Part shown: positions 6,523 through 59,533 of the stretch, one piece after another | Position numbering within the stretch: the first letter of the stretch is position 1 | Layout: the number at the start of each line of letters is the position of its first letter | From: an uncultured Candidatus Saccharibacteria bacterium | GTDB taxonomy: Bacteria > Patescibacteriota > Minisyncoccia > Phycocordibacterales > Phycocordibacteraceae | Reading direction: 5' to 3' | Length of the DNA stretch: 64,000 nt | Assembly (NCBI GenBank): GCA_964650475.1 | Contig: CAZYRK010000001.1 | Location: 8,356 to 72,355 of the forward strand | Position numbers and translations under genes: made by a program | Notes under the pieces: generated by a model | What the model saw: only the letters and a program-made list of their open reading frames with translations | What the model was told of the DNA's origin: nothing | The model's database searches: none

Positions 6523-6650
6523 CCTGCCGGCGGTTCGACTCCCACAAACGGTGCGAAGGCACCGTTTTCGTATGCTCACAATATATTCTAAAACGAAAAA
6601 CTCCTGTCGGAGTTTTTCGTTAAGAATGTTTTTGTGACCCTACGGGGATT
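6523..6650. repeat. direct repeat copy A: last 13 nt of tRNA-Glu plus about 115 bp of its 3' flank (attL/attR-like)
   Basis: ccggcggttcgactcccacaaacggtgcgaaggcaccg...gtttttgtgaccctacgggg is near-identical to 6759-6873, with 2 mismatches. It ends with tgaccctacgggg, the reverse complement of the tRNA-Glu 3' terminus. Confidence 0.7.
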
Positions 6651-6758
6651 GATCCTGACGGTCACTAAGCTCGCGAGCTCGCTAAGTGCCGCGGGACACG
6701 CCTCGTCTGTCGCTTTCTTCGCTCAGCCAGCTTCACTTGTAGCGACATGACTCCGGCG

Positions 6759-6873
6759 GTTCGACTCCCACAAACGGTGCGAAGGCACCGTTTTCGTATG
6801 CTCACAATATATTCTAAAACAAAAAACTCCTGACGGAGTTTTTCGTTAAGAATGTTTTTGTGACCCTACGGGG
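6759..6873. repeat. direct repeat copy B: the genuine 3' flank of tRNA-Glu, overlapping the tRNA 3' end
   Basis: Same 115-bp sequence as 6523-6650, continuing into the intact tRNA. Confidence 0.7.
6806..6843 (-). terminator. rho-independent terminator downstream of tRNA-Glu
   Basis: Hairpin aaaaactcc-tgac-ggagttttt followed on the minus strand by TTTTTTGTTTT. It is duplicated inside repeat copy A. Confidence 0.55.
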
Positions 6874-6932
6874 AGTCGAACCCCGATTACCACCGTGAGA
6901 GGGTGATGTCCTAGCCATTAGACGATAGGGCC
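6861..6932 (-). tRNA. tRNA-Glu (anticodon CTC)
   Basis: Hand-folded cloverleaf: acceptor GGCCCTA/TAGGGTC, D-stem GTCT/GGAC, anticodon stem TCACC/GGTGG with loop CTCTCAC (T33, anticodon CTC, A37), T-stem CGGGG/CCCCG with loop TTCGACT. CCA is not encoded. Confidence 0.85.
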
Positions 6933-28384: not shown

Positions 28385-28409
28385 TTTGGGAAGGTTAGAC
28401 CTTCTCAAC
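28385..28409. repeat. copy of repeat module E (ttgggaagg-N5-ccttc hairpin) next to tRNA-Asn att remnants
   Basis: tttgggaaggttagaccttctcaac resembles the modules at 48014, 55113, 55160, 55541 and 56340. Confidence 0.5.
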
Positions 28410-28419
28410 TGACAAGTAT

Positions 28420-28535
28420 TGGCTCCGGCTGTAAGCAAAGCTTGCCACCGTTCGTATCCTCAAAAAAGAACATCGCACTCGCGGTATTTCTTTTTGTTCG
28501 GATGCTCCGGCGGTAAGCAGAGCTTTCCACCGCTC
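28420..28535. repeat. two degenerate direct copies of the tRNA-Asn 3' end (att-site remnants)
   Basis: ggctccggctgtaagcaaagcttgccaccg (28420-28450) and gctccggcggtaagcagagctttccaccg (28503-28532) share GCTCCGGCGGTA with the reverse complement of the tRNA-Asn 3' end. Confidence 0.55.
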
Positions 28536-28548
28536 ACCTCGGTGAGCA

Positions 28549-28588
28549 TACAAATACCCGCGACTATCGTCGCGAGTATTTGTATGCT
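28549..28588. repeat. 18-bp inverted repeat hairpin just 3' of tRNA-Asn
   Basis: catacaaatacccgcgac-tatc-gtcgcgagtatttgtatg with 1 mismatch. Confidence 0.5.
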
Positions 28589-28595
28589 ACCTCGG

Positions 28596-28667
28596 CTCCG
28601 GCGGTAGGACTCGAACCTACAACCAATTCGTTAACAGCGAACTGCTCTACCATTGAGCTACACCGGA
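28596..28667 (-). tRNA. tRNA-Asn (anticodon GTT)
   Basis: Hand-folded: acceptor TCCGGTG/CGCCGGA, D-stem GCTC/GAGC, anticodon stem GTTCG/CGAAT with loop CTGTTAA, T-stem GTAGG/CCTAC with loop TTCGAGT, discriminator G. Confidence 0.85.
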
Positions 28668-47580: not shown

Positions 47581-47625
47581 AAGACCAAACACAGCGCCGG
47601 CTTCGCCGGCGCTGTGTTTGGTCTT
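47581..47625 (+). terminator. 20-bp-stem hairpin after the HAD gene
   Basis: aagaccaaacacagcgccgg-cttc-gccggcgctgtgtttggtctt is a perfect stem. Confidence 0.6.
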
Positions 47626-48060
47626 TAGAAAGTAATGTGGCGCGGGTTTTTACACTAAGTTTTGCGGACACTTAGTGTCCGCAAGTGTTTAAGTGTCCGC
47701 AAGTGTTTAAAAGCTGTACATTGCGATGAGTTTTGCGGACACTTAGTGTCGGCAGAAGTGTCGGCAGAACTTGCGGACACTTAGCGCAGAACAAGTTGCG
47801 GACACTTAGTGTCCGCAGAAATGTCCGCAGAAATTAACAACTAAAAAGCGCGCGGTACGTTGCGATGAATGTGATAAAACTCGGGAGAGCTTCCTTGTTC
47901 GCGTTTCGTCCGCGTCATGCTGTTTTGTAATGCAGCGCGGGGTTTTGCGGACACTTAGTGTCCGCAAAAGTAATGTAGCGCGGGATTTTGAGGTTTGGAG
48001 AGACCAGCTAACATTTTGGGAAGGTCTAACCTTCCCAACTTCATTCCGAAGGTTAAAGTT
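47626..48060. repeat. mosaic hairpin-repeat locus 1 (modules A, B, C, D, E, F)
   Basis: At least 6 copies of the palindrome tttgcggacac-tta-gtgtccgcaaa, plus ggtacgttgcgatg, gtaatgtagcgcgNggttttg..gagaccagctaaca and ttgggaaggtctaaccttcccaac modules shared with loci 2 and 3. Confidence 0.8.
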
Positions 48061-48166
48061 ATACACACACGCACTGTTGATACAGCGTGCTAAAAGAGCG
48101 CATACTATATTAATATAAGGCGTTTTTTCCGTCTGTATTTTACACAATAATCACCAGCACAATAAC

Positions 48167-48586
48167 ATGCATCACAATCTTCGCGAACTCGCAAAAATCG
48201 CAACCGGTTTTGTTCTCGCCGACGCCGTTTTCGGTGTTTGGTTTTCAATGACAGGGCTCTTACCGATAAACTTTTTCGGGATAGAACTCACACAAGCAAC
48301 AATCTTACCCGGCGTCATATTTGATTCTGTAATGGCACTACTTCTGGCGCACTACGGCTGGGGTATAAAACTTCCTGTGCGAAGTGTTCGAGAGCGCACA
48401 TTGTTACGCATAGCTGGAACACTATTTGCAATAGTCGCAATCGGTCACTGGACGCGCATCGCTTTTGGAGCAGATATAGTACTAGGCGGTTGGATGATGC
48501 CGGTATGGCTTTCATGGGTTGCTGTTACTATTACCACTTATCTGTCATATATGAGTTTCCATTTCTCATTTATACGCAAAAACTAA
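48167..48586 (+). CDS. hypothetical small membrane protein
   Basis: 139-aa hydrophobic ORF immediately upstream of the P-type ATPase. Confidence 0.45.
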   Translation: MHHNLRELAKIATGFVLADAVFGVWFSMTGLLPINFFGIELTQATILPGVIFDSVMALLLAHYGWGIKLPVRSVRERTLLRIAGTLFAIVAIGHWTRIAFGADIVLGGWMMPVWLSWVAVTITTYLSYMSFHFSFIRKN

Positions 48587-48592
48587 ATTAAC

Positions 48593-51022
48593 GTGACAAA
48601 GAAAACAAATCCGATTCCAGTACATTTACATGAGCCTGCAGGTCTATCGACCGCAGAAGCTACACGTGTACGCCAACAAGTAGGACCAAACACACTTGAA
48701 GAAAAAAAGAGCGGTGCATTTGCAAAGTTTGTCTCATGGGTCGTCACTCCGATATCGCTGATGCTTCTTGTTGCCGCTTCCCTTTCTTTTTTCGCAGGAA
48801 AAATGGCTGACGGATGGATTATTATTTTTCTTTTTGCAACAAACTTCGGAATACGCATCTGGCATGAAGGAAAAGCTGATCAAGCCGTTGCAAAACTTCA
48901 AGAACACCTCACCGTATTCTCGCGCGTGCGCAGAGACGGTCACTGGCAACGCCTATCTGCCACAGAGATAGTCCCTGGAGATGTTGTGATGCTTTTGGTT
49001 GGTACTATTGTTCCGGCAGACGCAGTAATTTTCTCCGCTACAAACCTTTCTCTCAACGAGTCTATGCTTACCGGAGAATCTTTGCCACGTGATCGCACTG
49101 AAGGAGAAACAATTTATTCTGGTTCATTCGTAGCAACAGGTACGGCAATCGCAACCATTTCCGCAACAGGAAACCATACTTATTTCGGGAAGACTCTCGC
49201 TTCTGTCGAACACACAAAAAAACGCAGTGCCCTTGAGCAAGACATTCTCACAATCTCACGCTTCCTTTCTATTTTTGCAATTGTAGCGATTGTGATTTTG
49301 TCTGCATTTTTATTTACAAAACCGGGGATAAGCTGGATAGAGCTTGCAACACTCGACATATCCCTACTTATCGCAGGCATTCCTGTGGCACTTCCGACCG
49401 TTATGAGCCTCATTATAAGTATCGGGGTGCTGGAACTCGCAAAAAAGCAAGCTATCGTACGGCGCCTCGCCTCTCTTGAAGACCTTGCAAACGTGGACAT
49501 GCTTCTCTCCGACAAAACAGGCACTCTTACGGAAAACAAAATCCATGTCGATAGAGTGCTTGTACTCTCGGCAAAAGACGAAGCAGAAGTCCTTACTTTT
49601 GCAACCAGCGCTACCGACACTGCGGATGGAAATCCCCTAGAAAACGCAGTCATAGCGAAAGCAAAAGAGCTCCTTGCAATACGTCTTCCACAAACCGCAT
49701 TTACTCCCGGTGATTCAAAACGCAAAAGAAGTACTGCTTTTGTAACTAAAGACGATACCCCGTGGATAGTTACACTCGGAGCCCCGAGTACCGTGCGTGC
49801 TCTTTGCAAATTCAGTAACAAAACTTTAGAAAAACAATTCGACGAAGGAGTGGCAACCGCAGCGACACGTGGCGATCGCGCACTTGCCGTTGCAGTGCGG
49901 AGTAATGCAACAGAAGAAAAAGACCTCACCCCCCTCGGGATACTTTTTCTCTCTGACACTCTACGGAGCGACGCAAAAGAAACTATCGAAGGAATGTATG
50001 ACCAAGGTATTTCTGTAAAAATGCTTACCGGCGACGGTATTCAAATAGCAAAATATGTATCGGAAGAGCTGGGACTTCGAGGAGAGATTGTTAAACGTGA
50101 CATATTCGATTCACCGGAAAGGCTCGCAAGCTCTTTTGACGATGTTGGTGGCTTCGCAGAAGTATTACCAAAAGACAAGTACCTTGCGGTGGAAACAGCA
50201 AAAAAGACCCACGTCGTTGCGGTAACTGGTGATGGCGTAAATGATGTACCACCTATTAAAGCGGCTGATGTCGGCATCGCAGTAAAAAATTCTGTAGACG
50301 CTCTGCGCTCAAGTGCAGATATTGTACTTCTTGCCAACGGTATCTCTTCCATACGCGATGCTATTATAGAGGCACGAAAAGTTTTCTTGCGCGTATATCA
50401 CTACTCTGTTTACCGTATCTCAGAAAGCGCACGACTAATTATTACAATTACAATTATCGGAATTATTGTCGGCAACTACCCTCTCACTCCTGTACAAATT
50501 ATACTTCTCGCCGTATTAAACGACCTTCCAATAGTCTCTCTGGCTTTTGACCACGTCAACAAAGCACGCGAACCTGCAACGATTGACGTCCGTCGCAGAT
50601 TTATCCTAGGAAGTGTTTACGGTTTTACAGGCGTTCTAAACAGCATGCTCATGCTACTTATCGCTCTCACGGTACTGCATATTCCATGGGGTCAAGTACA
50701 AACACTTTTCTTCCTTAAGCTTGTGGTTTCCGGAAACCTTCTTATTTATGTAGCTCACACGGAAGAAAGATGGTTCCGATATCTGCCGAGCTGGCAAGTC
50801 ATGGCATCTATTTCAACAACCCAGTTTATAGCGACAGCATGGGCGCTAAGTGGTTTCTACACCTCCGCTCTTCCGATATGGCTTGTAGGATTTATCTGGG
50901 TATGGTCATTCTTCTGGATGCAAACAGCAGAGCTTGGCAAAATGCTTGTTGCGCGCTTCACAAAAGCAAAAGCAGGGAGCCCTCAGACGATGGCTACAGC
51001 TCCGACAACACAACCAAACTAA
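48593..51022 (+). CDS. P-type ATPase, type IIIA-like (H+/Mg2+ family)
   Basis: TGES (MLTGESLP), DKTGTLTEN, TM4 IPVALPTV and GDGVNDVPPIKAADVGIAV. Probable GTG start. Confidence 0.85.
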   Translation: MTKKTNPIPVHLHEPAGLSTAEATRVRQQVGPNTLEEKKSGAFAKFVSWVVTPISLMLLVAASLSFFAGKMADGWIIIFLFATNFGIRIWHEGKADQAVAKLQEHLTVFSRVRRDGHWQRLSATEIVPGDVVMLLVGTIVPADAVIFSATNLSLNESMLTGESLPRDRTEGETIYSGSFVATGTAIATISATGNHTYFGKTLASVEHTKKRSALEQDILTISRFLSIFAIVAIVILSAFLFTKPGISWIELATLDISLLIAGIPVALPTVMSLIISIGVLELAKKQAIVRRLASLEDLANVDMLLSDKTGTLTENKIHVDRVLVLSAKDEAEVLTFATSATDTADGNPLENAVIAKAKELLAIRLPQTAFTPGDSKRKRSTAFVTKDDTPWIVTLGAPSTVRALCKFSNKTLEKQFDEGVATAATRGDRALAVAVRSNATEEKDLTPLGILFLSDTLRSDAKETIEGMYDQGISVKMLTGDGIQIAKYVSEELGLRGEIVKRDIFDSPERLASSFDDVGGFAEVLPKDKYLAVETAKKTHVVAVTGDGVNDVPPIKAADVGIAVKNSVDALRSSADIVLLANGISSIRDAIIEARKVFLRVYHYSVYRISESARLIITITIIGIIVGNYPLTPVQIILLAVLNDLPIVSLAFDHVNKAREPATIDVRRRFILGSVYGFTGVLNSMLMLLIALTVLHIPWGQVQTLFFLKLVVSGNLLIYVAHTEERWFRYLPSWQVMASISTTQFIATAWALSGFYTSALPIWLVGFIWVWSFFWMQTAELGKMLVARFTKAKAGSPQTMATAPTTQPN

Positions 51023-51196
51023 CAACACCGTTCCGACAAACAAAACATATTAACAGTCTCTTGAAAAAAAGATTGCACATAAACATGCTTTATGGCATAC
51101 TAAATTTAACTCGCAGTGTCTCTTGAGCTTCATAACAACTTAGGTTGTTGTAAGCGTTCGGTACCCGGCGAGGGTTATCAGGTTCACTACGTACAC

Positions 51197-51502
51197 ATGC
51201 AAGAAGAAAACAAGAAAAAATTATTTGTCGGTGGTATCCCTTGGGCATCGACAGAGGAAGATGTTAGAAAAGCTTTTGAGGAGGTTGGTACGGTTGTATC
51301 GGTAAGTCTACCGATTGATCGTATGTACAATCGTCCGCGCGGATTCGGATTCGTCGAAATGTCGACTGAAGAAGAAGCACAGAAAGCCGTTGAACGATGG
51401 GATGGCAAAGACTTTGGTGGTCGCACACTTAAAGTTGATTTTGCTCGCCCTGAGAGCGAACGCCCGCCACGCGAAAATCGTGGAGGATACGGAAGCTACT
51501 AA
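51197..51502 (+). CDS. RNA-binding protein with RRM domain
   Basis: RNP-2 LFVGGI and RNP-1 RGFGFVEM. The ORF-track start at 51116 is probably too far upstream. Confidence 0.75.
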   Translation: MQEENKKKLFVGGIPWASTEEDVRKAFEEVGTVVSVSLPIDRMYNRPRGFGFVEMSTEEEAQKAVERWDGKDFGGRTLKVDFARPESERPPRENRGGYGSY

Positions 51503-51520
51503 ACTGCAATTCCGCAAAAC

Positions 51521-51555
51521 AAAAATGGCGCGCCTTTGGCGCGCCATTTTTGTTT
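51521..51555 (+). terminator. rho-independent terminator
   Basis: aaaaatggcgcgcc-tttg-gcgcgccatttttgtttt. Confidence 0.75.
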
Positions 51556-51604
51556 TATACAAAATAGGTTGCAAACTACCTTATCTACAATTACTATTTT
51601 CAAC

Positions 51605-52366
51605 ATGCCTTACCCCATACCAAATGAAGTTTCCAAAAAAGATGCCTCGTGGTTGCTTCGCGATAAGTACAGCGGTATCGAAAACGAAGAGTACGCCAAA
51701 GACATTAAGCGCCTCTCTCAAGGAGAGCCTCTCGGCTATGTTATCGGTTGGGTTCCTTTTTTGGGTACTCACATAAAATTGACCTCTCGCCCACTCATAC
51801 CACGCACCGAAACAGAGTGGTGGGTTGAAAAACTGATTAGCATACTGTCTACAAAATTTAGTACAGACGCCTTTACTCTACTCGACATGGGAGCCGGCTC
51901 CGGTGCAATAGGTTGCTCGATACTTGCCCACTTGCCAAACGTACATGTTTCGTTCGGAGAAATCAACAAAAAACATTTGGAAACCATACGCTCAAATATT
52001 ATCGATAACGACATAGACATCGCTCGTACCGACATACGCGCAGGAAACCTTTTTGAAAAATTCGAAAATAGAAAATTTGATGTAATCATATCGAACCCCC
52101 CGTACGTTCCAAAAAATCGAGAGCTTCCAAAAAGCGTCTCCTCTTACGAGCCTTCAGAAGCTCTTTACGCCGGAGAGGACGGACTTTCGGTTATTCGCGA
52201 ACTTGCAAAAAAACTTTCCGAGCACCTAACGCAAAACGGCTTTGCGTGGATAGAGGTGGACACAGAACATGCACAAGAAGCCGAGAATTTGTTTATACAA
52301 GCACATTTCAACACAAAGATACTAAACGACCAATATGGTCGCGCGCGTGTTGTTATGGCATACTAA
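51605..52366 (+). CDS. prmC: release-factor glutamine N5-methyltransferase (HemK/PrmC family)
   Basis: SAM motif DMGAGSGAIG and catalytic NPPY (IISNPPYVP). Start taken at the ATG at 51605 inside the ORF-track frame. Confidence 0.75.
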   Translation: MPYPIPNEVSKKDASWLLRDKYSGIENEEYAKDIKRLSQGEPLGYVIGWVPFLGTHIKLTSRPLIPRTETEWWVEKLISILSTKFSTDAFTLLDMGAGSGAIGCSILAHLPNVHVSFGEINKKHLETIRSNIIDNDIDIARTDIRAGNLFEKFENRKFDVIISNPPYVPKNRELPKSVSSYEPSEALYAGEDGLSVIRELAKKLSEHLTQNGFAWIEVDTEHAQEAENLFIQAHFNTKILNDQYGRARVVMAY

Positions 52367-52631
52367 AGAAACTATGAACGTTTCTCAAAAAGCTCTTACA
52401 TTTACTCCTGCAATGCCTTTTACACACTTTCTTTCAAGCATGGGCATAGGCAAAATAGAAATGATAGCGTTTGGCATTATTTTTATGATATGGATAATTT
52501 TTACAATAATATCCGCCTATCATTGGATACGATATAACTACCGCTCTGTTATAACATTACCGATGCTAGCGCTACACGTTTTCATTTCTTTTTCTCTTAT
52601 AATGTACGCATGGAGCGGAATTGCGATATAA
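52335..52631 (+). CDS. hypothetical small membrane protein
   Basis: 98 aa with two TM helices. Confidence 0.4.
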   Translation: MVARVLLWHTKETMNVSQKALTFTPAMPFTHFLSSMGIGKIEMIAFGIIFMIWIIFTIISAYHWIRYNYRSVITLPMLALHVFISFSLIMYAWSGIAI

Positions 52632-53220
52632 CACAAATATAAACATGGAAGAATTTGGACTAGAAAAAGGTGAGCGAATTGTACGAAAGGTACGAGCACA
52701 CTGGATTGTGCTCGTCGGTTCGCTTTTGCCTATTGCGGTGCTTGCGATTGCTCCGTTTGCAATTAAACCTCTTCTTAATTTTTCCACCTCAGCGACACCT
52801 GCCCTCGCAATAATAACCAAAAACATTACCCTGTTTTCAAACAGCCCGCTAGCACATACGGTACTTGGTTTGTGGTGGCTACTCCTTTGGATAGGAGCTT
52901 TTAATACCATTACATATTATTTCCTAAACGTATGGGTGCTTACAACCGAGCGACTTGTTGAGATTCGCCAGCCACGGTATTTTAATCGAAAAGTTTCGAG
53001 TTTCTTTCTCAGTCGTGTTCAAGATGTATCATCAGATGTAAACGGTGTACTTGGCACACTTTTCGGTTTTGGTTTTATTCATGTCGAAACAGCCGGAGAA
53101 AGCGAAACATTTGAGATGCACGGCATACGCAGACCAAACGCATTACGTGATATTATCTTACATGAAATTGATGAAATCCATCGCAATCACGCCGGCAATT
53201 CCGGCACCGACGGATTATAA
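52621..53220 (+). CDS. membrane protein with a bacterial PH-like (YdbS/DUF304-type) domain
   Basis: N-terminus ...ERIVRKVRAHWIVLVGSLLPIAVLAIAPF followed by a TM hairpin, typical of bPH_2 proteins. Confidence 0.45.
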   Translation: MRYNTNINMEEFGLEKGERIVRKVRAHWIVLVGSLLPIAVLAIAPFAIKPLLNFSTSATPALAIITKNITLFSNSPLAHTVLGLWWLLLWIGAFNTITYYFLNVWVLTTERLVEIRQPRYFNRKVSSFFLSRVQDVSSDVNGVLGTLFGFGFIHVETAGESETFEMHGIRRPNALRDIILHEIDEIHRNHAGNSGTDGL

Positions 53221-53241
53221 AAATCTGATACACTTTACTTC

Positions 53242-54510
53242 ATGACCGATTCAAACAAACTTTCAACAAACCCATACAAAGGAGTACGGGATTTCTACCC
53301 AAAAGACTGGGCACGCTTACAGGCTATTTTTACAAATATCAGAAAAACTCTGGCGAGATACGGATACGAAGAGTACAACGCGTCCCCTCTTGAGCGCGCT
53401 GAAATATATGAAAACAAAACGTCCGAAGAAATCGTAAATGAGCAAACCTATACTTTTACCGACCGAGGAAATCGCCGTGTCACACTTCGACCGGAAATGA
53501 CCCCGACACTCGCGCGCATGGTGGCCGGAAAGAGACGAGAAATACCATTTCCCATACGATGGTTTTCAATAGGAAACCGTTTTCGTTACGAACGCCCGCA
53601 ACACGGTCGCCTGCGAGAGTTCTACCAAACAGACGTAGACCTACTCGGAGTTTCCGGAGCTGAAGCTGATATTGAAATTGTCACGCTAGCCTCAACAATC
53701 CTAAAAGACTTCGGTGCCTCTGAAAAGGATTTCACAATCCGAATAAGCTCACGAGCGCTTTTAAACAGCGCTTGCGAATCTGTAGGACTCACTCCGGAAA
53801 AAATAAAAACTTACATGCACTTGCTCGACCGCAAAGCGAAAATGCCCGCAGATGACTTTGCTTCATCTGTACATGAGATAACCGACAAAGATCCTCTGGA
53901 GCTGATTACAGAGGGCGACAACTCAATCGTTGAGCGAGAACGGCGCGCTTTGCTTGACCTAATAGAGACACTTAAAGCACGGGGCATAACAAACGTTTTG
54001 TTCGACCCTAGTGTTACTCGCGGGTTCGACTACTACACCGGAATCGTTTTCGAAATATTCGATACAGATCCGGCAAACACACGGGCGATGTTTGGCGGAG
54101 GACGTTATGACAAACTCGTTACAATGTTTGGTGGCGACCCTATCCCTGCCGTAGGTTTTGGTATGGGCGACGTAACTCTAACCGACTTCCTAAACACACA
54201 CGAGCTTTCGGTTTCCATAAACACCAAACCGCAACTCTATATAGGCACACCGTCATTTGGAGACATTCCCGGAGCAAAAGAATTTGCACAAACATTGCGA
54301 GCACAAGGGGCTCGGGTTTTTGTAAACATTACAGAAAAATCACTCGGCGACCAGATTAAAGATGCTGTTAAACGCGAGATACCGCTTTTCCTTGCGTACG
54401 GAGAAAACGAAGTACGAAAAGATCTTGTTCGCTTAAAAATACTTGCAACAAGCGAGGAGATTGGTATGGCTTCCAACGAGCTTCCGCTATATTTACAATC
54501 ACAAAAATAA
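53242..54510 (+). CDS. hisS: histidyl-tRNA synthetase
   Basis: P-G-x-D-F-x-P N-terminal motif (YKGVRDFYP), motif 2 FRYERPQHGRLREFYQ, GGGRYD motif, C-terminal anticodon-binding domain. Confidence 0.85.
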   Translation: MTDSNKLSTNPYKGVRDFYPKDWARLQAIFTNIRKTLARYGYEEYNASPLERAEIYENKTSEEIVNEQTYTFTDRGNRRVTLRPEMTPTLARMVAGKRREIPFPIRWFSIGNRFRYERPQHGRLREFYQTDVDLLGVSGAEADIEIVTLASTILKDFGASEKDFTIRISSRALLNSACESVGLTPEKIKTYMHLLDRKAKMPADDFASSVHEITDKDPLELITEGDNSIVERERRALLDLIETLKARGITNVLFDPSVTRGFDYYTGIVFEIFDTDPANTRAMFGGGRYDKLVTMFGGDPIPAVGFGMGDVTLTDFLNTHELSVSINTKPQLYIGTPSFGDIPGAKEFAQTLRAQGARVFVNITEKSLGDQIKDAVKREIPLFLAYGENEVRKDLVRLKILATSEEIGMASNELPLYLQSQK

Positions 54511-54512
54511 AA

Positions 54513-55091
54513 ATGCGAGCAATAACATTCGATATCGAAACAAAATCCACATCTGCCGTAAGAGGACGTGTTAATCCAGATGAAATGGAGCTGACTGTCG
54601 TTGCAATACACGATTCTGACACTGGAGAATACTCATCGTACTTCAAAGAAGAACTGCCGAAACTATGGCCAATACTTGAGCGGGCCGATATGCTTATCGG
54701 TTTCAATTCAAACACCTTCGATATTCCAATTCTAAACCGTTACTACCCTGGAGACTTGTCACTTATACACTCGCTAGATCTGCTTGTAGAGGTACACAAA
54801 GCTCTTGGGAGACGTATTCGCCTGCAACTTTTAGCGGAAGCAACACTTGGCAGAGGCAAGTCCGGAGATGGCTTAAAAGCAATTGACTGGTGGGCTGAAG
54901 GAAGGTTCGATGAGGTTCGCGAATACTGTATTGAAGACGTGCGCATAACGCGAGAGCTCTATGAATACGCACTGACTAACAAAAAACTTCGCTACAAAGA
55001 CCTGAAAGATTTCCGCGATATAAAAATTGACACTAGCGAATGGAATATAAGTACCGACCACCCCTCAATGACCCATACCCTTGGAATATAA
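54513..55091 (+). CDS. DEDDy-type 3'-5' exonuclease (RNase H-like fold, PolB-exo/YprB-like)
   Basis: Exo I FDIET, Exo II FNSNTFDIPIL, Exo III YCIEDV. Confidence 0.6.
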   Translation: MRAITFDIETKSTSAVRGRVNPDEMELTVVAIHDSDTGEYSSYFKEELPKLWPILERADMLIGFNSNTFDIPILNRYYPGDLSLIHSLDLLVEVHKALGRRIRLQLLAEATLGRGKSGDGLKAIDWWAEGRFDEVREYCIEDVRITRELYEYALTNKKLRYKDLKDFRDIKIDTSEWNISTDHPSMTHTLGI

Positions 55092-55094
55092 AAC

Positions 55095-55600
55095 CCCCAT
55101 AAGTTGCGACGCGTTTGGGAAGGTCTAACCTTCCCACTTTTCCGAGAAAAACCCTTGGCATATTTTGGGAAGGTCTAACCTTCCCAACTTTTCACAAATA
55201 AAAACCTAAGCGGTACGTTGCGATGGATAGGGTAAGACATGGCCGAGCAGTTTTGCGGACACTAAGTGTCCGCAAAACTAAGTGTCCGCAGAAAGTGTCC
55301 GCAGAAATTAACCGCTAAAAACCTAAGCGGTACGTTGCGATGGTGCAGGGTAAAACTGCCGACATTGCCGACACTTAGTGTCGGCAGAGAGAGACTGTTC
55401 GCGTCATATTGTTTTGTAATGTAGCGCGTGGTTTTGGGGTTTAGATAGACCGGCTAAACATTTTGGGAAAGTTAGACCTTTTGCGGACACTTAGTGTCCG
55501 CAGAAATATAGCGCGTGGGTTTGCGGACACTTAGTGTCCGCAAAAATAGATTTTAGGAAGGTTAGACCTTCCTAACTTTTTCCGAGATGTTTTTAGACTA
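55095..55600. repeat. mosaic hairpin-repeat locus 2
   Basis: Same module set as locus 1, with E modules at 55113, 55160 and 55541 and B palindromes at 55250, 55480 and 55520. Confidence 0.8.
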
Positions 55601-55640
55601 TAGATTTATATCGCTTAATTAAAATGGTATTATCGAAAAT

Positions 55641-56327
55641 ATGAAAAGAAGTTCTGTAATTCCAATAACAATCATCCTCGGCGGCATGCTCGTGGCAAGT
55701 GCTATATATATTACAACAATCCAAAAAGCCCCTCCACAAAAAATGCACTCCGATTTGTTTCGTCCTGTAAGCGTTACCGACCACATTCTTGGCAACCCAG
55801 ACGCCCCTGTAAAAATAATCGAGTACTCCGACCTTACCTGCAAATATTGCAAAGACTTCGACAATACAATGCGACAAATAATTAAGAAATACGGGGCGTC
55901 AGGAAATGTCGCATGGGTGTTTCGCGAGTTTCCATTAACCGAAATACATCCAAACGCCATGAGATTCGCTATCGCCGCCGAATGCGTTGCAAAAACCGCG
56001 GGAGAAACTGCATTTTGGAACTTCCTTAAAATTATTTTTGCAGACCAACCTGCCAATACAAAAAACTTGGGGCAATACGCCAAAGAATCTGGAGCGAACC
56101 CAGACGTCGTAGCAACTTGTATCATTAGCGGTTCTGTAAACAAAAAAATAAATGCGGACAGAAAAAACGCTCTCTCTATAGGAGCAAGCGGCACGCCTTA
56201 TTCTCTCATCACAACATACGGAGCCCCTCCCGTTATTATAAATGGCGCGTATCCATACGACTATATTGAACAAGAAATAAACACAGCTCTAAATATAGCC
56301 AGCTCAACCGAGGCGGCACAAAAATAA
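55641..56327 (+). CDS. DsbA-like thiol:disulfide oxidoreductase (thioredoxin fold, membrane-anchored)
   Basis: N-terminal TM; CxxC active site DLTCKYCKDF. Confidence 0.75.
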   Translation: MKRSSVIPITIILGGMLVASAIYITTIQKAPPQKMHSDLFRPVSVTDHILGNPDAPVKIIEYSDLTCKYCKDFDNTMRQIIKKYGASGNVAWVFREFPLTEIHPNAMRFAIAAECVAKTAGETAFWNFLKIIFADQPANTKNLGQYAKESGANPDVVATCIISGSVNKKINADRKNALSIGASGTPYSLITTYGAPPVIINGAYPYDYIEQEINTALNIASSTEAAQK

Positions 56328-56334
56328 AATCGAC

Positions 56335-56700
56335 TAGCATTTGGGAAGGTCTAACCTTCCCAACATGAACCGCTAAAAACCTAAGCGGTACGTTGCGATG
56401 GATAGGGTAAGACATGAGTTTTGCGGACACTTAGTGTCCGCAAAAGTGTAGCGCATGGTTTTGTAGTGCGTGGTTTTGATATCTAAGAGACCAGCTAACA
56501 TGAACAGCTAAAAAGCACGCGGTACGTTGCGATGAGTTTTGCGGACACTAAGTGTCCGCAAAATAGTATCGGCAGAAATTAACACTTGCGGACACTTAGT
56601 GTCCGCAAAAGTGTCCGCAAAAAGTGTCCGCAGAAATGTAGCGCGGGGGTTTGGGGTTTGGGGTTTGGGGTTTGGGGTTTGGGGTTTGGGGAGACCAGCT
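56335..56700. repeat. mosaic hairpin-repeat locus 3, ending in a (GGGGTTT)5GGGG microsatellite (56646-56684)
   Basis: Modules E, A, B, D repeated. The final D module has its ggttttgRggttt segment expanded to five GGGGTTT units. Confidence 0.8.
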
Positions 56701-59533
56701 AGTCCTCAAGAAGTTTAAGTATTGCGTCATACTCTGACAATGCTCCACGACGCCACTTTCCACTGCGTAATTCGCGCACAACAGTATCCATATCTTTAAG
56801 TGCGTTTTCTCGCTCCTGTTTCCCTACCGGAACTGAAACTTTTTTAATCCCCTTATCTGAAATACCTAGCAACAAACCACTGGAAACATCTTCTCCATTT
56901 GCAAAAAGCATTGCCGCATAAAGTGCAAGCTGTCGTGCATACGCTTCGTTTTTTGCGGAAACACTAGTTCCTGTTTTAAAATCCGCCACAACAAGTTTGC
57001 CATCTTTTTTAAAGACCGCATCAATCTTCCCCGCCAAAATTACTGGAACGCCATCAATCTTTTGCTCCATAGAAAAACCTTTTTCAACATAAACCGGTTC
57101 TCCGAGTTCTTCCAATTCCGGAAACACTGCACCAACAGCTTTCTTAGATTCACTGCGTAGTTTCTCAAACGCCAAATCCCTTACAAGCAACGAACGCGCG
57201 AACACCCGAGAAAGCGCGACATAAGAATCTTCCAGTGTTCCTCCGGAAAGAGCTGTCGCGAGCGCCACGTGTATTGCACTACCGTAAACAAGCGGCGGCG
57301 TTGGTGGCTCATGTATACGTAAAACACGGCGCGCGAAAAAAGTCGCTGGTGACTCAAGATATTCGTTTACAGCAGACGGTGAAAGTCCTCCCGTTTCCAG
57401 ATACTGTTCCACCAATTCGTGTATTTTTTTTGGAGCGTTAATTGTTGCGTGCAAGGCAGGTAGAATATCTCCTTCTACATTGACCTCTGAAATATTTTTT
57501 GGCATCAGTAATGTCGGAAGTCTGTCACGCCCGGTGTCACTTGTACGTGCATAAAAAAGATACGCATAATCTTTTGCTCGAGTAAGTGCAACATAAAACA
57601 ATCGGCGTGCGTCATCTATCGTTTGTTTACTATCGAACGGGGTCGGTACGGTTGAAGACCTATTGTTTTTTTCCCAAGTATTTTCAGTACAATCTGGAAC
57701 AATAACATACTTAAATTCCATACCTTTTGCCTTGTGCGCGGTAATCACAGTAATGAAACCTTCTCGCTCAGTCAAAGAAACCTTAACCGGCGAAAGTCCG
57801 TGCTCCCTGGCGCGCGTAAGATCTCTAAAAGCCTCTGCAAACATTGTGGCTTCTGTAAGAAGCACAACATTTTCAAGGTGCATCATAAGCGCGCGCACAA
57901 GAGATATGTTGTCTATAAGCTCCGCATGTGACAAAAAGTAATCACGAGCTCCGCTCTCTGTAAAAACATATGAAAACGTAGCTATTGGCGTAAGTACGAG
58001 CGCTTCACGTACACAAGAAGCGATTATCTTTGATGTCTCTGGAAATTGACGATACAAATCGGAAACTAAATCTTTATCATTTGTTGTTCGCAAAAAATGA
58101 AGCATCTGAACAATGGGTACTCCCCACCAAGGAGCGAGTAACGCTTCCCGCAGACTTCCTGTGCGCAAAGGATCTGCAACATAATCCATAAGAGATACAA
58201 GAGCCCTTACTACAGGTTGTGCTGTTAAAGACAGATCACCAGCCCGAAGAACCGGCAGATTTTTTGCTACAAGCGCCTGTGCAAACAAATCCGCTGTTTT
58301 ATTTTTACGAGAGATTATTGCAATCTCGTGCGGAAGCACTCCGTCTTTTATAAGCTTTTCAACAAGAGCAACTACACGAGAGCGCTCATCAAGCGGGTCG
58401 GAAGCTGTGACAAAAGATACACACGCCGTATCTCCGGAACGCGTCGCAGTGAGGCGCGAGTGTTCTCCAGCAGAATCCACAACAGAGTGCGCCGTATCAA
58501 GAATATTTTGATACGAACGAAAAGAAGATGTTAGATTGATTACAACAGTTCGCGGAAAAAGCTTTGTGAAGGTTTTAAAAGCTCCGATATCAGCTCCTTG
58601 GAAACGATAGATCGCCTGTTTTTCATCACCAACAACAAAAATATTCGGATGGTCATCGTACGCAAAAAGCTCGAGCATTTTATGTTGGGAAGCATTAGCG
58701 TCTTGATGTTCATCAGCCAAAATATACTGGTAGCGCTCTTGCAAATCGCTTCGCAAACTCTCATTTGACGCGATACAGCCGACTACACCTGTCAAAATAT
58801 CAGAAAAATCAATAAGCCCTCGAGCGTCTTTAAGTTCTTGATACAGAGAGAGTACACAAACAGCTTCGTCAACCCTATCAAACCGGGCAATCTTATCATG
58901 CCCGGCTTTTGTTAATTCACCGATACACTTTCCTTTCTTGTACTGAAAAGCTTCGTCCTCTTTAATAGCAAGCACTTCTTTGCTTCCCCACTCACGATAC
59001 TCGTCGTACGTTATTCCTTCTCGCGAGAACAAACCGTAAAGACTTTTCAAATCTCGCAAATAAGTATACGGGGCTTTTGGTGGACGCAAAATATTTATAT
59101 CTGCCATATCAATAGCCTTTCGAAGCAAAAGAGTTTCTTCAACATCACCCATCAAGCGCTTATCGATTTCGCCTGCAAAAGCATCTGGATATTCCGAGCG
59201 CACTAGCTCCGCAAACCCGTGGAAAGTTGTGATAGTAACCTTCCGAGCAGTTTCCTCACCAATTAGTACCGATAGGCGCCCGCGCATCGTCCGCGCTGCC
59301 GAGTCGGTAAAAGTCAGCGCGAGAATACTATCTGGCGTCGCTTGTGTTATTCGCAATATATTTGCGATGCGCAATGTAAGAATATGGGTTTTACCAGTAC
59401 CAGGACCTGCAAGTACCATCACAGGACCCTCTACAGTATCGACCGCTTGTTTTTGTTCTTTTGTAAGTTTTGTATACGCCTCATCAAAAGCTTTGCTTCC
59501 ATGTATCATATGTTTAGTGTACCCGAATATCAC
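56699..59533 (-). CDS. UvrD/PcrA-family SF1 helicase fused to a C-terminal RecB-family PD-(D/E)xK nuclease (AddA-like)
   Basis: Walker A LAGPGTGKTH. UvrD motifs including VDEFQD as ADEHQDAN. C-terminal nuclease motifs GKIDAVF, VVADFKTG and QLALY. Confidence 0.75.
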   Translation of the reverse strand: MIFGYTKHMIHGSKAFDEAYTKLTKEQKQAVDTVEGPVMVLAGPGTGKTHILTLRIANILRITQATPDSILALTFTDSAARTMRGRLSVLIGEETARKVTITTFHGFAELVRSEYPDAFAGEIDKRLMGDVEETLLLRKAIDMADINILRPPKAPYTYLRDLKSLYGLFSREGITYDEYREWGSKEVLAIKEDEAFQYKKGKCIGELTKAGHDKIARFDRVDEAVCVLSLYQELKDARGLIDFSDILTGVVGCIASNESLRSDLQERYQYILADEHQDANASQHKMLELFAYDDHPNIFVVGDEKQAIYRFQGADIGAFKTFTKLFPRTVVINLTSSFRSYQNILDTAHSVVDSAGEHSRLTATRSGDTACVSFVTASDPLDERSRVVALVEKLIKDGVLPHEIAIISRKNKTADLFAQALVAKNLPVLRAGDLSLTAQPVVRALVSLMDYVADPLRTGSLREALLAPWWGVPIVQMLHFLRTTNDKDLVSDLYRQFPETSKIIASCVREALVLTPIATFSYVFTESGARDYFLSHAELIDNISLVRALMMHLENVVLLTEATMFAEAFRDLTRAREHGLSPVKVSLTEREGFITVITAHKAKGMEFKYVIVPDCTENTWEKNNRSSTVPTPFDSKQTIDDARRLFYVALTRAKDYAYLFYARTSDTGRDRLPTLLMPKNISEVNVEGDILPALHATINAPKKIHELVEQYLETGGLSPSAVNEYLESPATFFARRVLRIHEPPTPPLVYGSAIHVALATALSGGTLEDSYVALSRVFARSLLVRDLAFEKLRSESKKAVGAVFPELEELGEPVYVEKGFSMEQKIDGVPVILAGKIDAVFKKDGKLVVADFKTGTSVSAKNEAYARQLALYAAMLFANGEDVSSGLLLGISDKGIKKVSVPVGKQERENALKDMDTVVRELRSGKWRRGALSEYDAILKLLED

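Follow-up and report, generated by a model that had tools for sequence, protein, structure and literature searches.

Three gene spacers in the 64-kb stretch of DNA analysed here (the window) are dense with hairpin-repeat modules, which raises the question of what these repeats are and how they came to be there. A preliminary description held that the spacers are built from the same reshuffled modules, and we confirmed the presence of the modules at these coordinates (Table 1).

Hairpin modules in three gene spacers

Module B is a palindrome (TTGCGGACAC-TWA-GTGTCCGCAA) with 11 full copies in the window. Its core, GCGGACACTTAGTGTCCGC, matched 11 sites with up to three mismatches against none expected from 100 shuffles, and all of them lie within 47662-47967, 55253-55543 and 56421-56608. 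A separate search identified eight solitary B half-sites, seven of which repeat the 3' arm just past a full palindrome, giving tandem arm reiterations with a period of 12-18 nt. The "at least 13" B copies counted previously therefore correspond to 11 full palindromes and eight half-sites. Stem compensation at B positions 7 and 11 exceeds that in all 200 shuffles, and the arms cease to be complementary roughly 12 nt out from the centre.

Hairpin E is found at six sites, as counted before, with none expected; the site at 28386 on the minus strand is the only family member found in the window outside the three spacers. One additional, degenerate E copy (55461-55478) is an 18-nt copy of the 5' arm and loop of the E hairpin at 55553-55575, on the opposite side of an inserted B-B block. 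The module A core, GCGGTACGTTGCGATG, occurs in five exact and one degenerate copies, exclusively on the plus strand (0.5 expected), and there are three to four D/F units, three copies being long and several others partial (repeat families D8 and D1). These modules are the largest repeat families of the entire window. B hairpins are spaced 31 to 205 nt apart without periodicity, in agreement with the earlier view that the clusters are not CRISPR-like, and the A-to-B composites range from 59 to 166 nt as a nested-deletion series. The spacers carry a fast-evolving hairpin-repeat family.

Table 1. Repeat features of the window, by locus.
Feature	Coordinates	Strand	Remarks
Repeat locus 1	47626-48045		spacer between PMM/HAD gene and 139-aa gene; order F-head-like, B, half-site, degenerate A, B, half-site, partial B, B, half-site, A, linker, D, F-head, B, F-head, F-tail, E
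B palindrome	47662-47684		REP-like hairpin, centre T; repeat family D2
B half-site	47693-47701	+	GTGTCCGCA
B palindrome	47733-47755		hybrid GCGG/CGGC arms
B half-site	47758-47766	+
B half-site	47772-47780	-
B palindrome	47796-47818		strain contig L025: centre A, adjacent 12-nt arm duplication absent
B half-site	47821-47829	+
Module A	47836-47868	+	CTAAAAA..GCGGTACGTTGCGATG; runs on into linker and D, 47869-47944
B palindrome	47945-47967		preceded by F-head GTAATGCAGCGCGGGGTTTT
F unit	47970-48012	+	GTAATGTAGCGCG-G/T-rich-GAGACCAGCTAACA; repeat family D8
Hairpin E	48016-48038	+	TTGGGAAGG-TCTAA-CCTTCCCAA
Repeat locus 2	55112-55578		spacer between RNaseH-like gene and dsbA; order E, E, A, B, two half-sites, A, B (cggc variant), D/F, degenerate E, B, F-head, B, E(-)
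Hairpin E	55115-55137	+
Hairpin E	55165-55187	+	fixed E-A arrangement
Module A + linker	55194-55241	+	linker GATAGGGTAAGACATG; repeat family D5
B palindrome	55253-55275		centre A
B half-site	55282-55290	+
B half-site	55295-55303	+
Module A + linker	55311-55358	+
B palindrome	55365-55387		compensated GCCG/CGGC variant
D/F unit	55395-55460	+
B palindrome	55481-55503		in B-F-head-B block, missing in sibling genome
B palindrome	55521-55543		in B-F-head-B block, missing in sibling genome
Hairpin E	55553-55575	-	reverse loop
Repeat locus 3	56338-56702		spacer between convergent dsbA and addA-like genes; order E, A, B, F, A, B, B, two half-sites, F with (GGGGTTT)6.6
Hairpin E	56341-56363	+	E-A arrangement
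Module A + linker	56369-56416	+
B palindrome	56421-56443		orthologous copy in sibling (L041): centre A
F unit	56446-56500	+
Module A	56503-56535	+	joined straight to B
B palindrome	56539-56561		centre A; immediately after module A
B palindrome	56586-56608		followed by two reiterated 3' arms
B half-site	56611-56619	+	reiterated 3' arm
B half-site	56624-56632	+	reiterated 3' arm
F unit	56636-56702	+	G/T tract expanded to (GGGGTTT)6.6, 56646-56691; F-tail overlaps addA-like stop codon
Lone hairpin E	28386-28408	-	outside the three loci; adjoins tRNA-Asn

Dispersal and turnover of the repeats

Copies are also found elsewhere, as they would not be after a purely local duplication: B is present on 27 contigs of the source metagenome, 25 of them beyond the window, and the B-bearing contigs match the window in composition (r = 0.77-0.97). 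Although ORFs of 150 aa or longer make up 81% of the DNA, 91 of 101 B copies fall outside them. The modules are dispersed genome-wide and are extragenic. Of 18 copies of module A, 16 reside on the strand of negative GC skew (p = 0.0013), and our own tally of the skew table has 12 of the 14 A-bearing contigs in agreement. Its orientation bears no relation to the direction of neighbouring genes (15 same, 22 opposite). Replication-coupled transposition through single-stranded DNA, as in the IS200/IS605 family, is expected to yield such a replication-strand bias.

The orthologous spacers differ greatly in length at sites of conserved gene order, which demonstrates rapid turnover of the repeats. 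They measure 598, 549 and 371 bp in the window, the last two are 264 and 94 bp in a sibling genome (97% HisRS identity), and those of relatives at 75-78% identity span 53-314 bp. Differences between genomes consist of entire module blocks. The sibling has only E-A-D/F-E and no B at locus 2, where the B-F-head-B block of the window is absent, and its 94-bp locus 3 holds only a half-site, B and F. At locus 1 the distal half varies between strains while the proximal half is conserved, and a 12-nt arm unit is polymorphic between the window and L025. Some of these differences resemble products of slippage or of unequal recombination, and the strain and sibling comparisons yielded no clean insertion junction that had a recurring target site. 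Gene order is identical in relatives with few or no repeats, so the bracketing of dsbA and of the 48167-55091 block noted earlier, although positionally true, is incidental and without biological meaning.

A Y1 HUH transposase flanked by the same modules

The same modules flank a gene for a 229-aa Y1 HUH transposase on three contigs; no such gene was found in the window itself. The 229-aa ORF on contig L004 passes the Pfam Y1_Tnp model (28.6 bits, gathering score 23) and has B palindromes on both sides together with module A and F-tail. Immediately downstream of it lies DNA that is 91% identical to the F-tail/A/B stretch at 56484-56561 of the window. An identical protein (100%) is encoded on L028, which derives from the same assembly (VAPM) as the DsbA contig of the window, and on L040 an E-E-A-B spacer joins the 3' end of the transposase gene to the genes for PGK and TIM. 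Judging from the shared metagenome, modules and composition in an assembly that is not closed, the transposase most likely belongs to the same genome as the window.

Eighteen family members all carry the HUH motif (N84 H85 x H87) and the Tyr motif (Y145 K149 N150) without variation. The AF2 model (pLDDT 90.6) best matches PDB entry 4ER8, the E. coli RAYT with its REP hairpin, followed by the TnpA proteins of ISDra2 and IS608; the fold search barely separates RAYT (E = 1e-4) from IS200/IS605 TnpA (5e-4). Profile comparison with RAYT-labelled proteins gave 98.6% probability, but scores against NCBIfam REP_Tyr_transpos were 29-32 bits, below its cutoff of 80. In all 10 sampled relatives the transposase gene is flanked by a short palindrome, on both sides in nine, whose sequence tracks the protein clade and not the host genome. 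The GCCG/CGGC variant of B flanks a 67%-identical RAYT homolog on L006. RAYT C-terminal fragments truncated at a B hairpin are present on L019 and L036 (70% and 93% identity), representing one or two further loci, which suggests that the gene itself has been copied, a more IS-like behaviour.

Origin of the repeats

We consider it probable, at about 75%, that the spacers are BIME-like mosaic clusters of a REP-type family partnered with a RAYT-like Y1 (HUH) transposase whose gene lies elsewhere in the same Kaiserbacteria-like genome; the REP/BIME likeness proposed earlier thus gains a candidate cognate enzyme. In this reading the REP itself would be module B, whose compact hairpin has a central T or A and a stem of about 11 bp. 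The analogy with E. coli TnpA(REP) and IS200/IS605 TnpA suggests that the enzyme may bind the hairpin where the replication fork leaves DNA single-stranded; cutting and rejoining of strands could then disperse, duplicate and reshuffle B along with adjacent sequence. A longer composite (F-tail, [E], A, linker, D, F-head, B) would be copied together with B and then decay via nested internal deletions, with A, D and F as its conserved non-palindromic passengers or spacers; replication slippage may add the arm reiterations of 12-18 nt and the (GGGGTTT)n tract. The enzyme model leaves the roles of A, D and F without explanation. A second RAYT, of clade 2, probably has hairpin E as its REP, and no enzyme for E was found.

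REP/BIME-type systems are already well known in E. coli and Pseudomonas, and we found no report of one in this bacterial group. The repeats resemble the REP/BIME and RAYT (TnpA-REP, "REPtron") systems of E. coli and other Proteobacteria (PMC3479197; Bertels et al. 2017, PMC5581495) in the Y1 HUH enzyme, in the repeat on both sides of its gene, in short extragenic hairpins far outnumbering that gene, in clusters mixing hairpins with other conserved motifs (BIMEs) and in lineage-specific repeat sequence. In contrast to the imperfect hairpin of canonical REPs, B is a perfect odd-length palindrome, and its foot has no conserved 5' GTAG or CGTC tag and no conserved unpaired GTAG-like guide tetranucleotide; in E. 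coli both binding and cleavage depend on the GTAG tag (Messing et al. 2012, PMC3479197). Also distinctive are the long sequence-conserved non-palindromic modules (A, D, F), the reiterated hairpin arms and the host, a Patescibacterium with a tiny genome. The protein itself (about 230 aa) belongs to a separate clade; its C-terminal region is helical, and about 28 residues are inserted ahead of the HUH strand. Like the REPINs of P. fluorescens (Bertels and Rainey 2011, PMC3116915), the repeats are a non-autonomous, RAYT-associated extragenic population with fast turnover within a lineage; REPINs, however, are REP doublets forming hairpins, whereas the irregular spacing of B and its short complementarity leave no fixed inverted doublet here.

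Alternatively, the repeats could be MITE/PATE-like miniature derivatives of autonomous IS200/IS605-type elements and not partners of a domesticated single-copy RAYT, with the Y1 gene moving together with its flanking hairpins and the spacers holding its deletion derivatives. The RAYT fragments truncated at a B hairpin, which occur in addition to the intact gene, the nested-deletion series and the near-equal fold scores of IS608 and ISDra2 TnpA all favour this, and the family shares the Y1 HUH fold, presumably hairpin recognition, and a behaviour that the strand bias matches. Yet the same palindrome stands on both sides of the gene, where IS200/IS605 elements have left and right ends that differ, and the protein exceeds TnpA by about 80 residues. 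As a unit the gene is not multi-copy, about 100 palindromes are set against a few gene copies, no internal RAYT coding sequence is found in the composites, and nine relatives keep a single gene amid housekeeping genes with two to four palindromes nearby. We therefore regard this origin as unlikely. Spread by selection for an RNA-level role, as multi-copy small RNAs or as 3'/5' UTR hairpins in termination or mRNA stability, is quite improbable. REPs of E. coli do affect mRNA stability, the copies often sit directly past stop codons (E at 55115 and 56341) and one E copy (55553-55575) fits a terminator pattern on both strands. But B, once taken for a bidirectional terminator, has a T-run, a stem and an A-run on both strands, an intrinsic terminator reversed, and is thus not a terminator; three of its 11 copies fit loosely in a terminator scan, through incidental tails. 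Nor did the suggested terminated A+B sRNA hold up, as RNAalifold yields the B hairpin alone (covariation term 0.03), composite length varies and A ignores gene direction. The modules have no Rfam match even at permissive thresholds, and none to phage or plasmid DNA. Such a role would be secondary at most, for it explains neither the origin of the repeats nor their association with RAYT.

A perfect palindrome accompanied by half-sites in direct repeat every 12-13 nt, or about one turn of the helix, is a typical signature of dimeric DNA-binding proteins and iterons, and B with its half-sites might be a double-stranded operator, iteron or parS-like array with a regulatory or chromosome-organising function. 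This is even less probable given at least 100 copies in unrelated spacers that vary between sibling strains, and compensatory stem changes that include the whole-arm CGGC variant; the clade-specific palindrome beside the Y1 gene in 10 of 10 relatives points to the Y1 enzyme as the partner. Least probable of all is an origin without any transposase, by local tandem duplication, slippage and homologous recombination among existing repeats, which could not have brought the same modules to at least 27 separate contigs and spacers and leaves both the palindrome-protein clade correspondence and the strand bias of A unexplained. Within clusters, the polymorphic 12-nt arm duplication, the expanded (GGGGTTT)n tract and the 18-nt E-arm duplication flanking the inserted block, as from unequal recombination, indicate that these processes are likely a contributor and not the origin.

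Modules of the three repeat-bearing spacers

The three intergenic spacers had been proposed to be assembled from common, reshuffled modules, and both sequence reading and a repeat census bore this out. These modules are the biggest repeat families in the 64-kb window, and outside the three spacers only one copy of hairpin E occurs. The core of palindrome B (GCGGACACTTAGTGTCCGC, up to three mismatches) is present in 11 copies compared with 0 expected by chance; there are also eight solitary B half-sites in the window, seven of which are the 3' arm reiterated with a 12-18 nt period directly after a full palindrome. Hairpin E (TTGGGAAGG-TCTAA-CCTTCCCAA) has six copies against 0 expected, plus an extra degenerate one. 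The core of the non-palindromic module A (GCGGTACGTTGCGATG) is found five times exactly and once in degenerate form, all on the + strand, against 0.5 expected. The surrounding genes are ordinary and encode a GH130 protein, a PMM-like HAD protein, a P-type ATPase, an RRM protein, a PrmC-like methyltransferase, a bPH protein, HisRS, an RNaseH-like exonuclease, DsbA and an AddA-like helicase-nuclease. Judged by its HisRS homologs, the organism falls within Patescibacteria, near Candidatus Kaiserbacteria and Paceibacterota.

Positions of the repeat spacers and of related or neighbouring features
Sequence	Position (strand)	Feature
Window	47626-48045	repeat spacer
Window	55112-55578	repeat spacer
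Window	56338-56702	repeat spacer
Window	28386 (-)	lone E hairpin
Window	55461	degenerate E copy
Window	56484-56561	91% identical over 78 nt to DNA just downstream of the L004 ORF
Window	56505-56535	segment compared with L001
L001 (VAPM010258248.1)	1010-1038	counterpart of window 56505-56535
L043	11900-11960	long palindrome with GCGGAC-TAAT-GTCCGC in the RNaseH/DsbA spacer
L006	17573-17617	two GCCGACAC-TWA-GTGTCGGC palindromes
Window	47583-47625	long GC-rich hairpin GACCAAACACAGCGCCGGC-ttcg-GCCGGCGCTGTGTTTGGTC, then TTT
Window	56646-56691	perfect (GGGGTTT)6.6 tandem tract
Window	6527-6648	122-nt direct repeat, first copy
Window	6753-6874	122-nt direct repeat, second copy (98% identity)
Window	6860-6932 (-)	tRNA-Glu(ctc)
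Window	28415-28560	two fragments sharing CTTAC[C/A]GCCGGAGC with the tRNA-Asn 3' end
Window	28594-28667 (-)	tRNA-Asn

Pooling of about 100 distinct B copies from the window and related contigs gave the consensus nTTT-GCGGACAC-T[T/A]A-GTGTCCGC-AAAn, a perfect odd-length palindrome. Its arms pair over ~10-11 bp about one central base (T or A), and complementarity is at background past ~12 nt. Compensated changes exceeded all 200 shuffles at stem position 7 (GC 78, CG 10, mismatch 14) and stem position 11 (TA 73, CG 11, TG 13). Strong covariation of the flanks (tttt/aaaa, cactt/aagtg etc.) was rejected, as counting left only these two positions above the shuffles. Information content is ~0 outside the stem across the same copies, and thus no unpaired 5' GTAG (or CGTC) tetranucleotide is conserved at the hairpin foot; TGTAGCGCG stands ~10 nt upstream of B in only about a quarter of copies. 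The GTAG tag is required in E. coli (PMC3479197). Successive REPs of a BIME alternate in orientation, which in B could be read only from the central base. Among the window copies this base, as read from the matches, is T in eight and A in three, B being otherwise symmetric; a regex count gave nine and two but also catches a non-palindromic site. Orthologous B copies differ in this base. 'Loop flips' were dropped as evidence of inversion because orientation hangs on the one central base, where a point mutation is possible.

What is conserved in module A is its primary sequence, (C)AGCTAAAAA..GCGGTACGTTGCGATG, followed by the linker GATAGGGTAAGAC. It is preceded by B, E or F-tail and followed either directly by B or by the linker, a GC-rich segment, D, F-head and then B. 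The modules of the window and other contigs follow the order [F-tail, E or B], A, [linker, D, F-head], B(n), [F-head, F-tail], with the A-to-B copies, 59-166 nt long, making up a series of nested deletions. E is nearly invariant (of 29 copies, 23 match the 17-nt core exactly), and F-tail, E, A is a frequent order. Of 18 A copies, 16 are on the strand with negative GC skew (p = 0.0013, for a small sample of non-independent copies), with strand agreement in 12 of 14 A-bearing contigs in our own tally of the same table; the orientation of A has no relation to that of neighbouring genes (15 same, 22 opposite). This bias fits a replication-strand-specific process acting at the DNA level. Y1 transposases of the IS200/IS605 family act in a replication-strand-specific way.

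Several readings of these modules can be weighed on their anatomy. B had been called a bidirectional terminator-like palindrome, and this does not hold: on either strand its consensus runs TTT, stem, AAA, opposite to the layout of an intrinsic terminator, and only 3 of the 11 window copies fit even a loose terminator scan. A structured sRNA made of A and B together likewise found no support: RNAalifold on 12 copies returned nothing beyond the B hairpin (covariation term 0.03). Nor do the modules belong to a known ncRNA family: Rfam 15 at gathering score recovered only two tRNAs in the window and no module, and a permissive search gave only hairpin matches far below threshold. The arrays are indeed not CRISPR-like, as the preliminary description held; spacing from one B hairpin to the next runs from 31 to 205 nt without a period or dominant value, and the 'spacers' are themselves repeated modules.

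A RAYT-like enzyme and the dispersal of its flanking palindrome

When reference genomes were scanned for the exact pattern, a 1.3-kb contig (L004, CAZODM010000230.1) emerged, with five exact B matches and several further B variants. B, module A and F-tail all lie on both sides of its 229-aa ORF. L004 is filed under a Desulfobacterales MAG and is probably mis-binned, because its repeats match the Patescibacteria window. The ORF product passes Pfam Y1_Tnp (28.6 bits; gathering score 23), and the HUH motif (H85/H87) and the Tyr-x3-Lys-Asn motif (Y145) are invariant in 18 relatives. A fold search was needed because the family profile matched the PDB by sequence only weakly, with ISDra2 alone (E = 0.34). 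The AlphaFold model of P0003, a relative 67% identical to the L004 protein, has a pLDDT of 90.6; the closest PDB structure is 4ER8, E. coli RAYT in complex with a REP hairpin, with ISDra2 and IS608 TnpA close behind (2XM3, 2VJV). Profile-profile comparison (hhalign) with proteins that one source labels REP-associated tyrosine transposase gave 98.6% probability, the alignment showing a ~28-residue insertion before the HUH strand. NCBIfam NF047646 REP_Tyr_transpos scored 28.7-31.8 bits for the L004 protein (31.8), P0003, P0018 and P0044, below the cutoff of 80. No RAYT gene was found in the window by tblastn (best E = 2.8).

The family comprises 1,592 proteins at E <= 1e-20, and its named members carry hardly any label other than Kaiserbacteria, Paceibacterota, Taylorbacteria or Patescibacteria. 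All 10 sampled members have a flanking palindrome, identical on both sides in nine. The second copy on contig L006 is 53% identical to P0044 and has the same palindrome, whereas it is only 41% identical to its genomic neighbour P0003, which has the other palindrome type. The palindrome sequence thus follows the protein clade. Module E resembles the clade-2 palindromes and so may be the REP of a second, clade-2 enzyme; a clade-2 profile search and one contig look-up found no enzyme cognate to E and yielded L048, from another MAG, as the tenth palindrome-flanked example. Contig L006 also holds two more palindromes 7 kb from the RAYT homolog, within the 5' end called for a peptidyl-tRNA hydrolase gene. 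The start of that gene is probably miscalled, in which case they would be extragenic.

Palindromes flanking sampled members of the transposase family
Contig (protein)	Palindrome
L004; L006 copy 1 (P0003)	GC[G/C]GACAC-TWA-GTGTC[C/G]GC
L044 (P0013)	GATGGACAC-TWA-GTGTCCATC
L008 (P0018)	GATGGACAC-GTA-GTGTCCATC
L045 (P0016)	GGTATGACACG-S-CGTGTCATACC
L046 (P0038)	imperfect doublet, upstream only
L011 (P0044); L006 copy 2	GGAAGTC-W-GACTTCC
L047 (P0045)	TGGGAACATC-T-GATGTTCCCA
L048 (P0234)	TACCGAAG-TTAAA-CTTCGGTA + reiterated arm

One scan of metagenomes for B gave 27 contigs. They all belong to the VAPK, VAPL and VAPM assemblies, which also contain the window DsbA at 100% identity. Only two of them overlap the window; B is therefore present elsewhere, on 25 contigs, and is not a purely local duplication, the possibility that the preliminary description had set against a dispersed family. 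The transposase is encoded at 100% identity on one contig (L028), and on another (L040) its 3' end lies beside PGK, TIM and a pilin-like gene, with an E-E-A-B spacer between. The tetranucleotide signatures of the B contigs correlate with that of the window at r = 0.77-0.97, compared with -0.2 to 0.3 for five unrelated Patescibacteria loci; L011-L013 (0.74) and L046 (0.82) come near the range of the B contigs. From assembly origin and composition we infer that the B contigs, the transposase and the window belong to the same genome. Outside stop-to-stop ORFs of at least 150 aa, which make up 81% of the DNA, lie 91 of 101 B copies. One intact transposase gene was found (L004, L028), with gene-end pieces on L019 and L040, in a metagenome of several strains; given truncated fragments beside B on L019 and L036 (70% and 93% identity), the gene may not be strictly single-copy, as a REPtron transposase that does not copy itself would be.

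A phage or plasmid origin was rejected, there being no match in viral, phage or plasmid DNA: viral contigs held 0 exact matches to B or E, blastn of phages and plasmids gave no match to the repeats, and a protein search of plasmids gave remote matches only. A single palindrome match in a Streptomyces contig (L005, GC 0.72) was taken as chance.

Turnover of the spacers and relation to known systems

Gene order around HisRS is exactly alike in three relatives, the sibling genome L041 and the more distant L042 and L043, while the spacers differ. The 'bracketing' of dsbA and of a seven-gene block noted in the preliminary description is therefore incidental, as the same order occurs in relatives with few or no repeats, and the repeats expanded within pre-existing spacers.

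Spacer lengths at orthologous loci, with HisRS identity to the window
Spacer	Window	L041 (97%)	L042 (78%)	L043 (75%)
PMM to 139-aa gene	598 bp	contig starts here	225 bp	138 bp
RNaseH-like to DsbA	549 bp	264 bp	53 bp	314 bp
DsbA to AddA-like	371 bp	94 bp	217 bp	59 bp

The module families recur in L041 in fewer copies, its RNaseH/DsbA spacer reading E-A-D/F-E without B; L042 retains one exact E, and L043 has none of the window's modules. The comparison of strains that had been called for showed that the window and L041 differ by whole blocks: an E-A-B block of ~170 nt; a B-F-head-B block lying inside an E hairpin, with an 18-nt duplication of the E arm at its flank; and an F-A-B-B-F block of ~210 nt. 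The strain contig L025 differs from the window in segments, namely a 12-nt arm duplication and a replaced B-containing segment. No clean insertion junctions or target site could be extracted from the three spacer alignments. In L001, another assembly of the same DsbA region, the sequence diverges from the window where module A begins, immediately past AACAGCTAAAAA; either the strains differ in this module or the assembly broke within the repeat. The long palindrome in L043 recalls the B core, perhaps as a diverged member of the same REP lineage.

The early likening of these repeats to REP/BIME clusters is borne out by a Y1 gene flanked by B, extragenic dispersal and mosaic clusters, and a REP/BIME-type system is the best-supported reading. 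By the published accounts of REP-RAYT systems (PMC3479197, PMC5581495), a REPtron pairs a Y1 HUH enzyme, with its HUH motif and one catalytic tyrosine, with a flanking repeat that is extragenic and far exceeds the gene in copy number. The enzyme here has both features; B flanks its gene on L004, with partial views on L028 and L040, and far outnumbers it in what we take to be the same genome. As in BIMEs, the hairpins are combined with other conserved motifs in variable order. The canonical E. coli REP is an imperfect palindrome with stem mismatches and a GTAG tag, whereas B is perfect and untagged, and reiterated hairpin arms, long non-palindromic modules and a separate protein clade are further differences. 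Because of these, we file the system as one that works like REP-RAYT and lies outside the GTAG-tagged E. coli-type family. A REPIN, in which two inverted REPs a short, constant distance apart fold into a long hairpin, does not fit B hairpins 31-205 nt apart without complementarity past ~12 nt. An IS200/IS605 element would be a multi-copy gene with distinct left and right subterminal hairpins; here the same hairpin stands on both sides, palindromes far outnumber genes, and the relatives' genes sit singly among housekeeping genes.

In the REP/BIME-type reading, B would be the hairpin recognised by the RAYT-like Y1 HUH enzyme, whose gene lies in another part of the genome. By homology, this enzyme would cut single-stranded DNA and transfer strands, so that B would be dispersed and reshuffled with adjacent sequence, and the clusters could then be remodelled by slippage and recombination. 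A broader picture, to which we give about a two-in-five chance, is that Patescibacteria harbour a large undescribed clade of ~230-aa RAYT-like enzymes, each co-evolving with its own perfect-palindrome REP, and that in a Kaiserbacteria-like lineage these expanded into multi-module mosaics turning over between sibling strains, a REPIN-like replicator population in a ~1 Mb genome; A might be a functional part, e.g., a cleavage or guide site replacing the missing GTAG tag. The literature searched, of incomplete coverage such that an earlier description may exist, contained no report of REP/RAYT in Patescibacteria, and the sample accessions were absent from every paper in it.

REP/RAYT are the best-studied vertically inherited intragenomic replicators and are known mainly from large proteobacterial genomes. 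A REP/RAYT-like system in ultra-small, streamlined symbiont genomes would widen the known host range, extending a well-known mechanism to a new, very large bacterial group with altered hairpin rules, and would offer a natural test of element persistence where non-coding DNA is scarce. The palindrome-enzyme pairs are ready substrates for the biochemistry of Y1 HUH specificity. The repeats also break short-read assemblies: contigs with the window DsbA are all ~1 kb, and most family members lie on contigs of 1-3 kb. Such breaks fragment Patescibacteria MAGs and can cause mis-binning, as for L004 in its Desulfobacterales MAG.

Other features of the window

The GC-rich hairpin directly after the PMM-like gene is conserved in L041 and L025, and a similar sequence lies upstream of a B copy on contig L027; it is plausibly a genuine terminator separate from the repeat family. 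The (GGGGTTT) tract lies within an F module and adjoins the addA-like stop codon. It is G-rich and length-variable, with G-quadruplex potential, and is absent at the orthologous sibling position; other F copies have one or two degenerate units.

Two observations concern tRNA genes. The second copy of the 122-nt direct repeat ends in the 3' terminal bases of tRNA-Glu, and the first carries the same bases plus ~105 nt of downstream DNA; the pair resembles the attL/attR-type scar left by an element that had integrated at, or been excised from, the 3' end of tRNA-Glu. The tRNA-Asn site may be an integration site used repeatedly: the two fragments that share sequence with its 3' end adjoin the lone E hairpin, in a 26-32 kb region of low GC (0.33-0.37).
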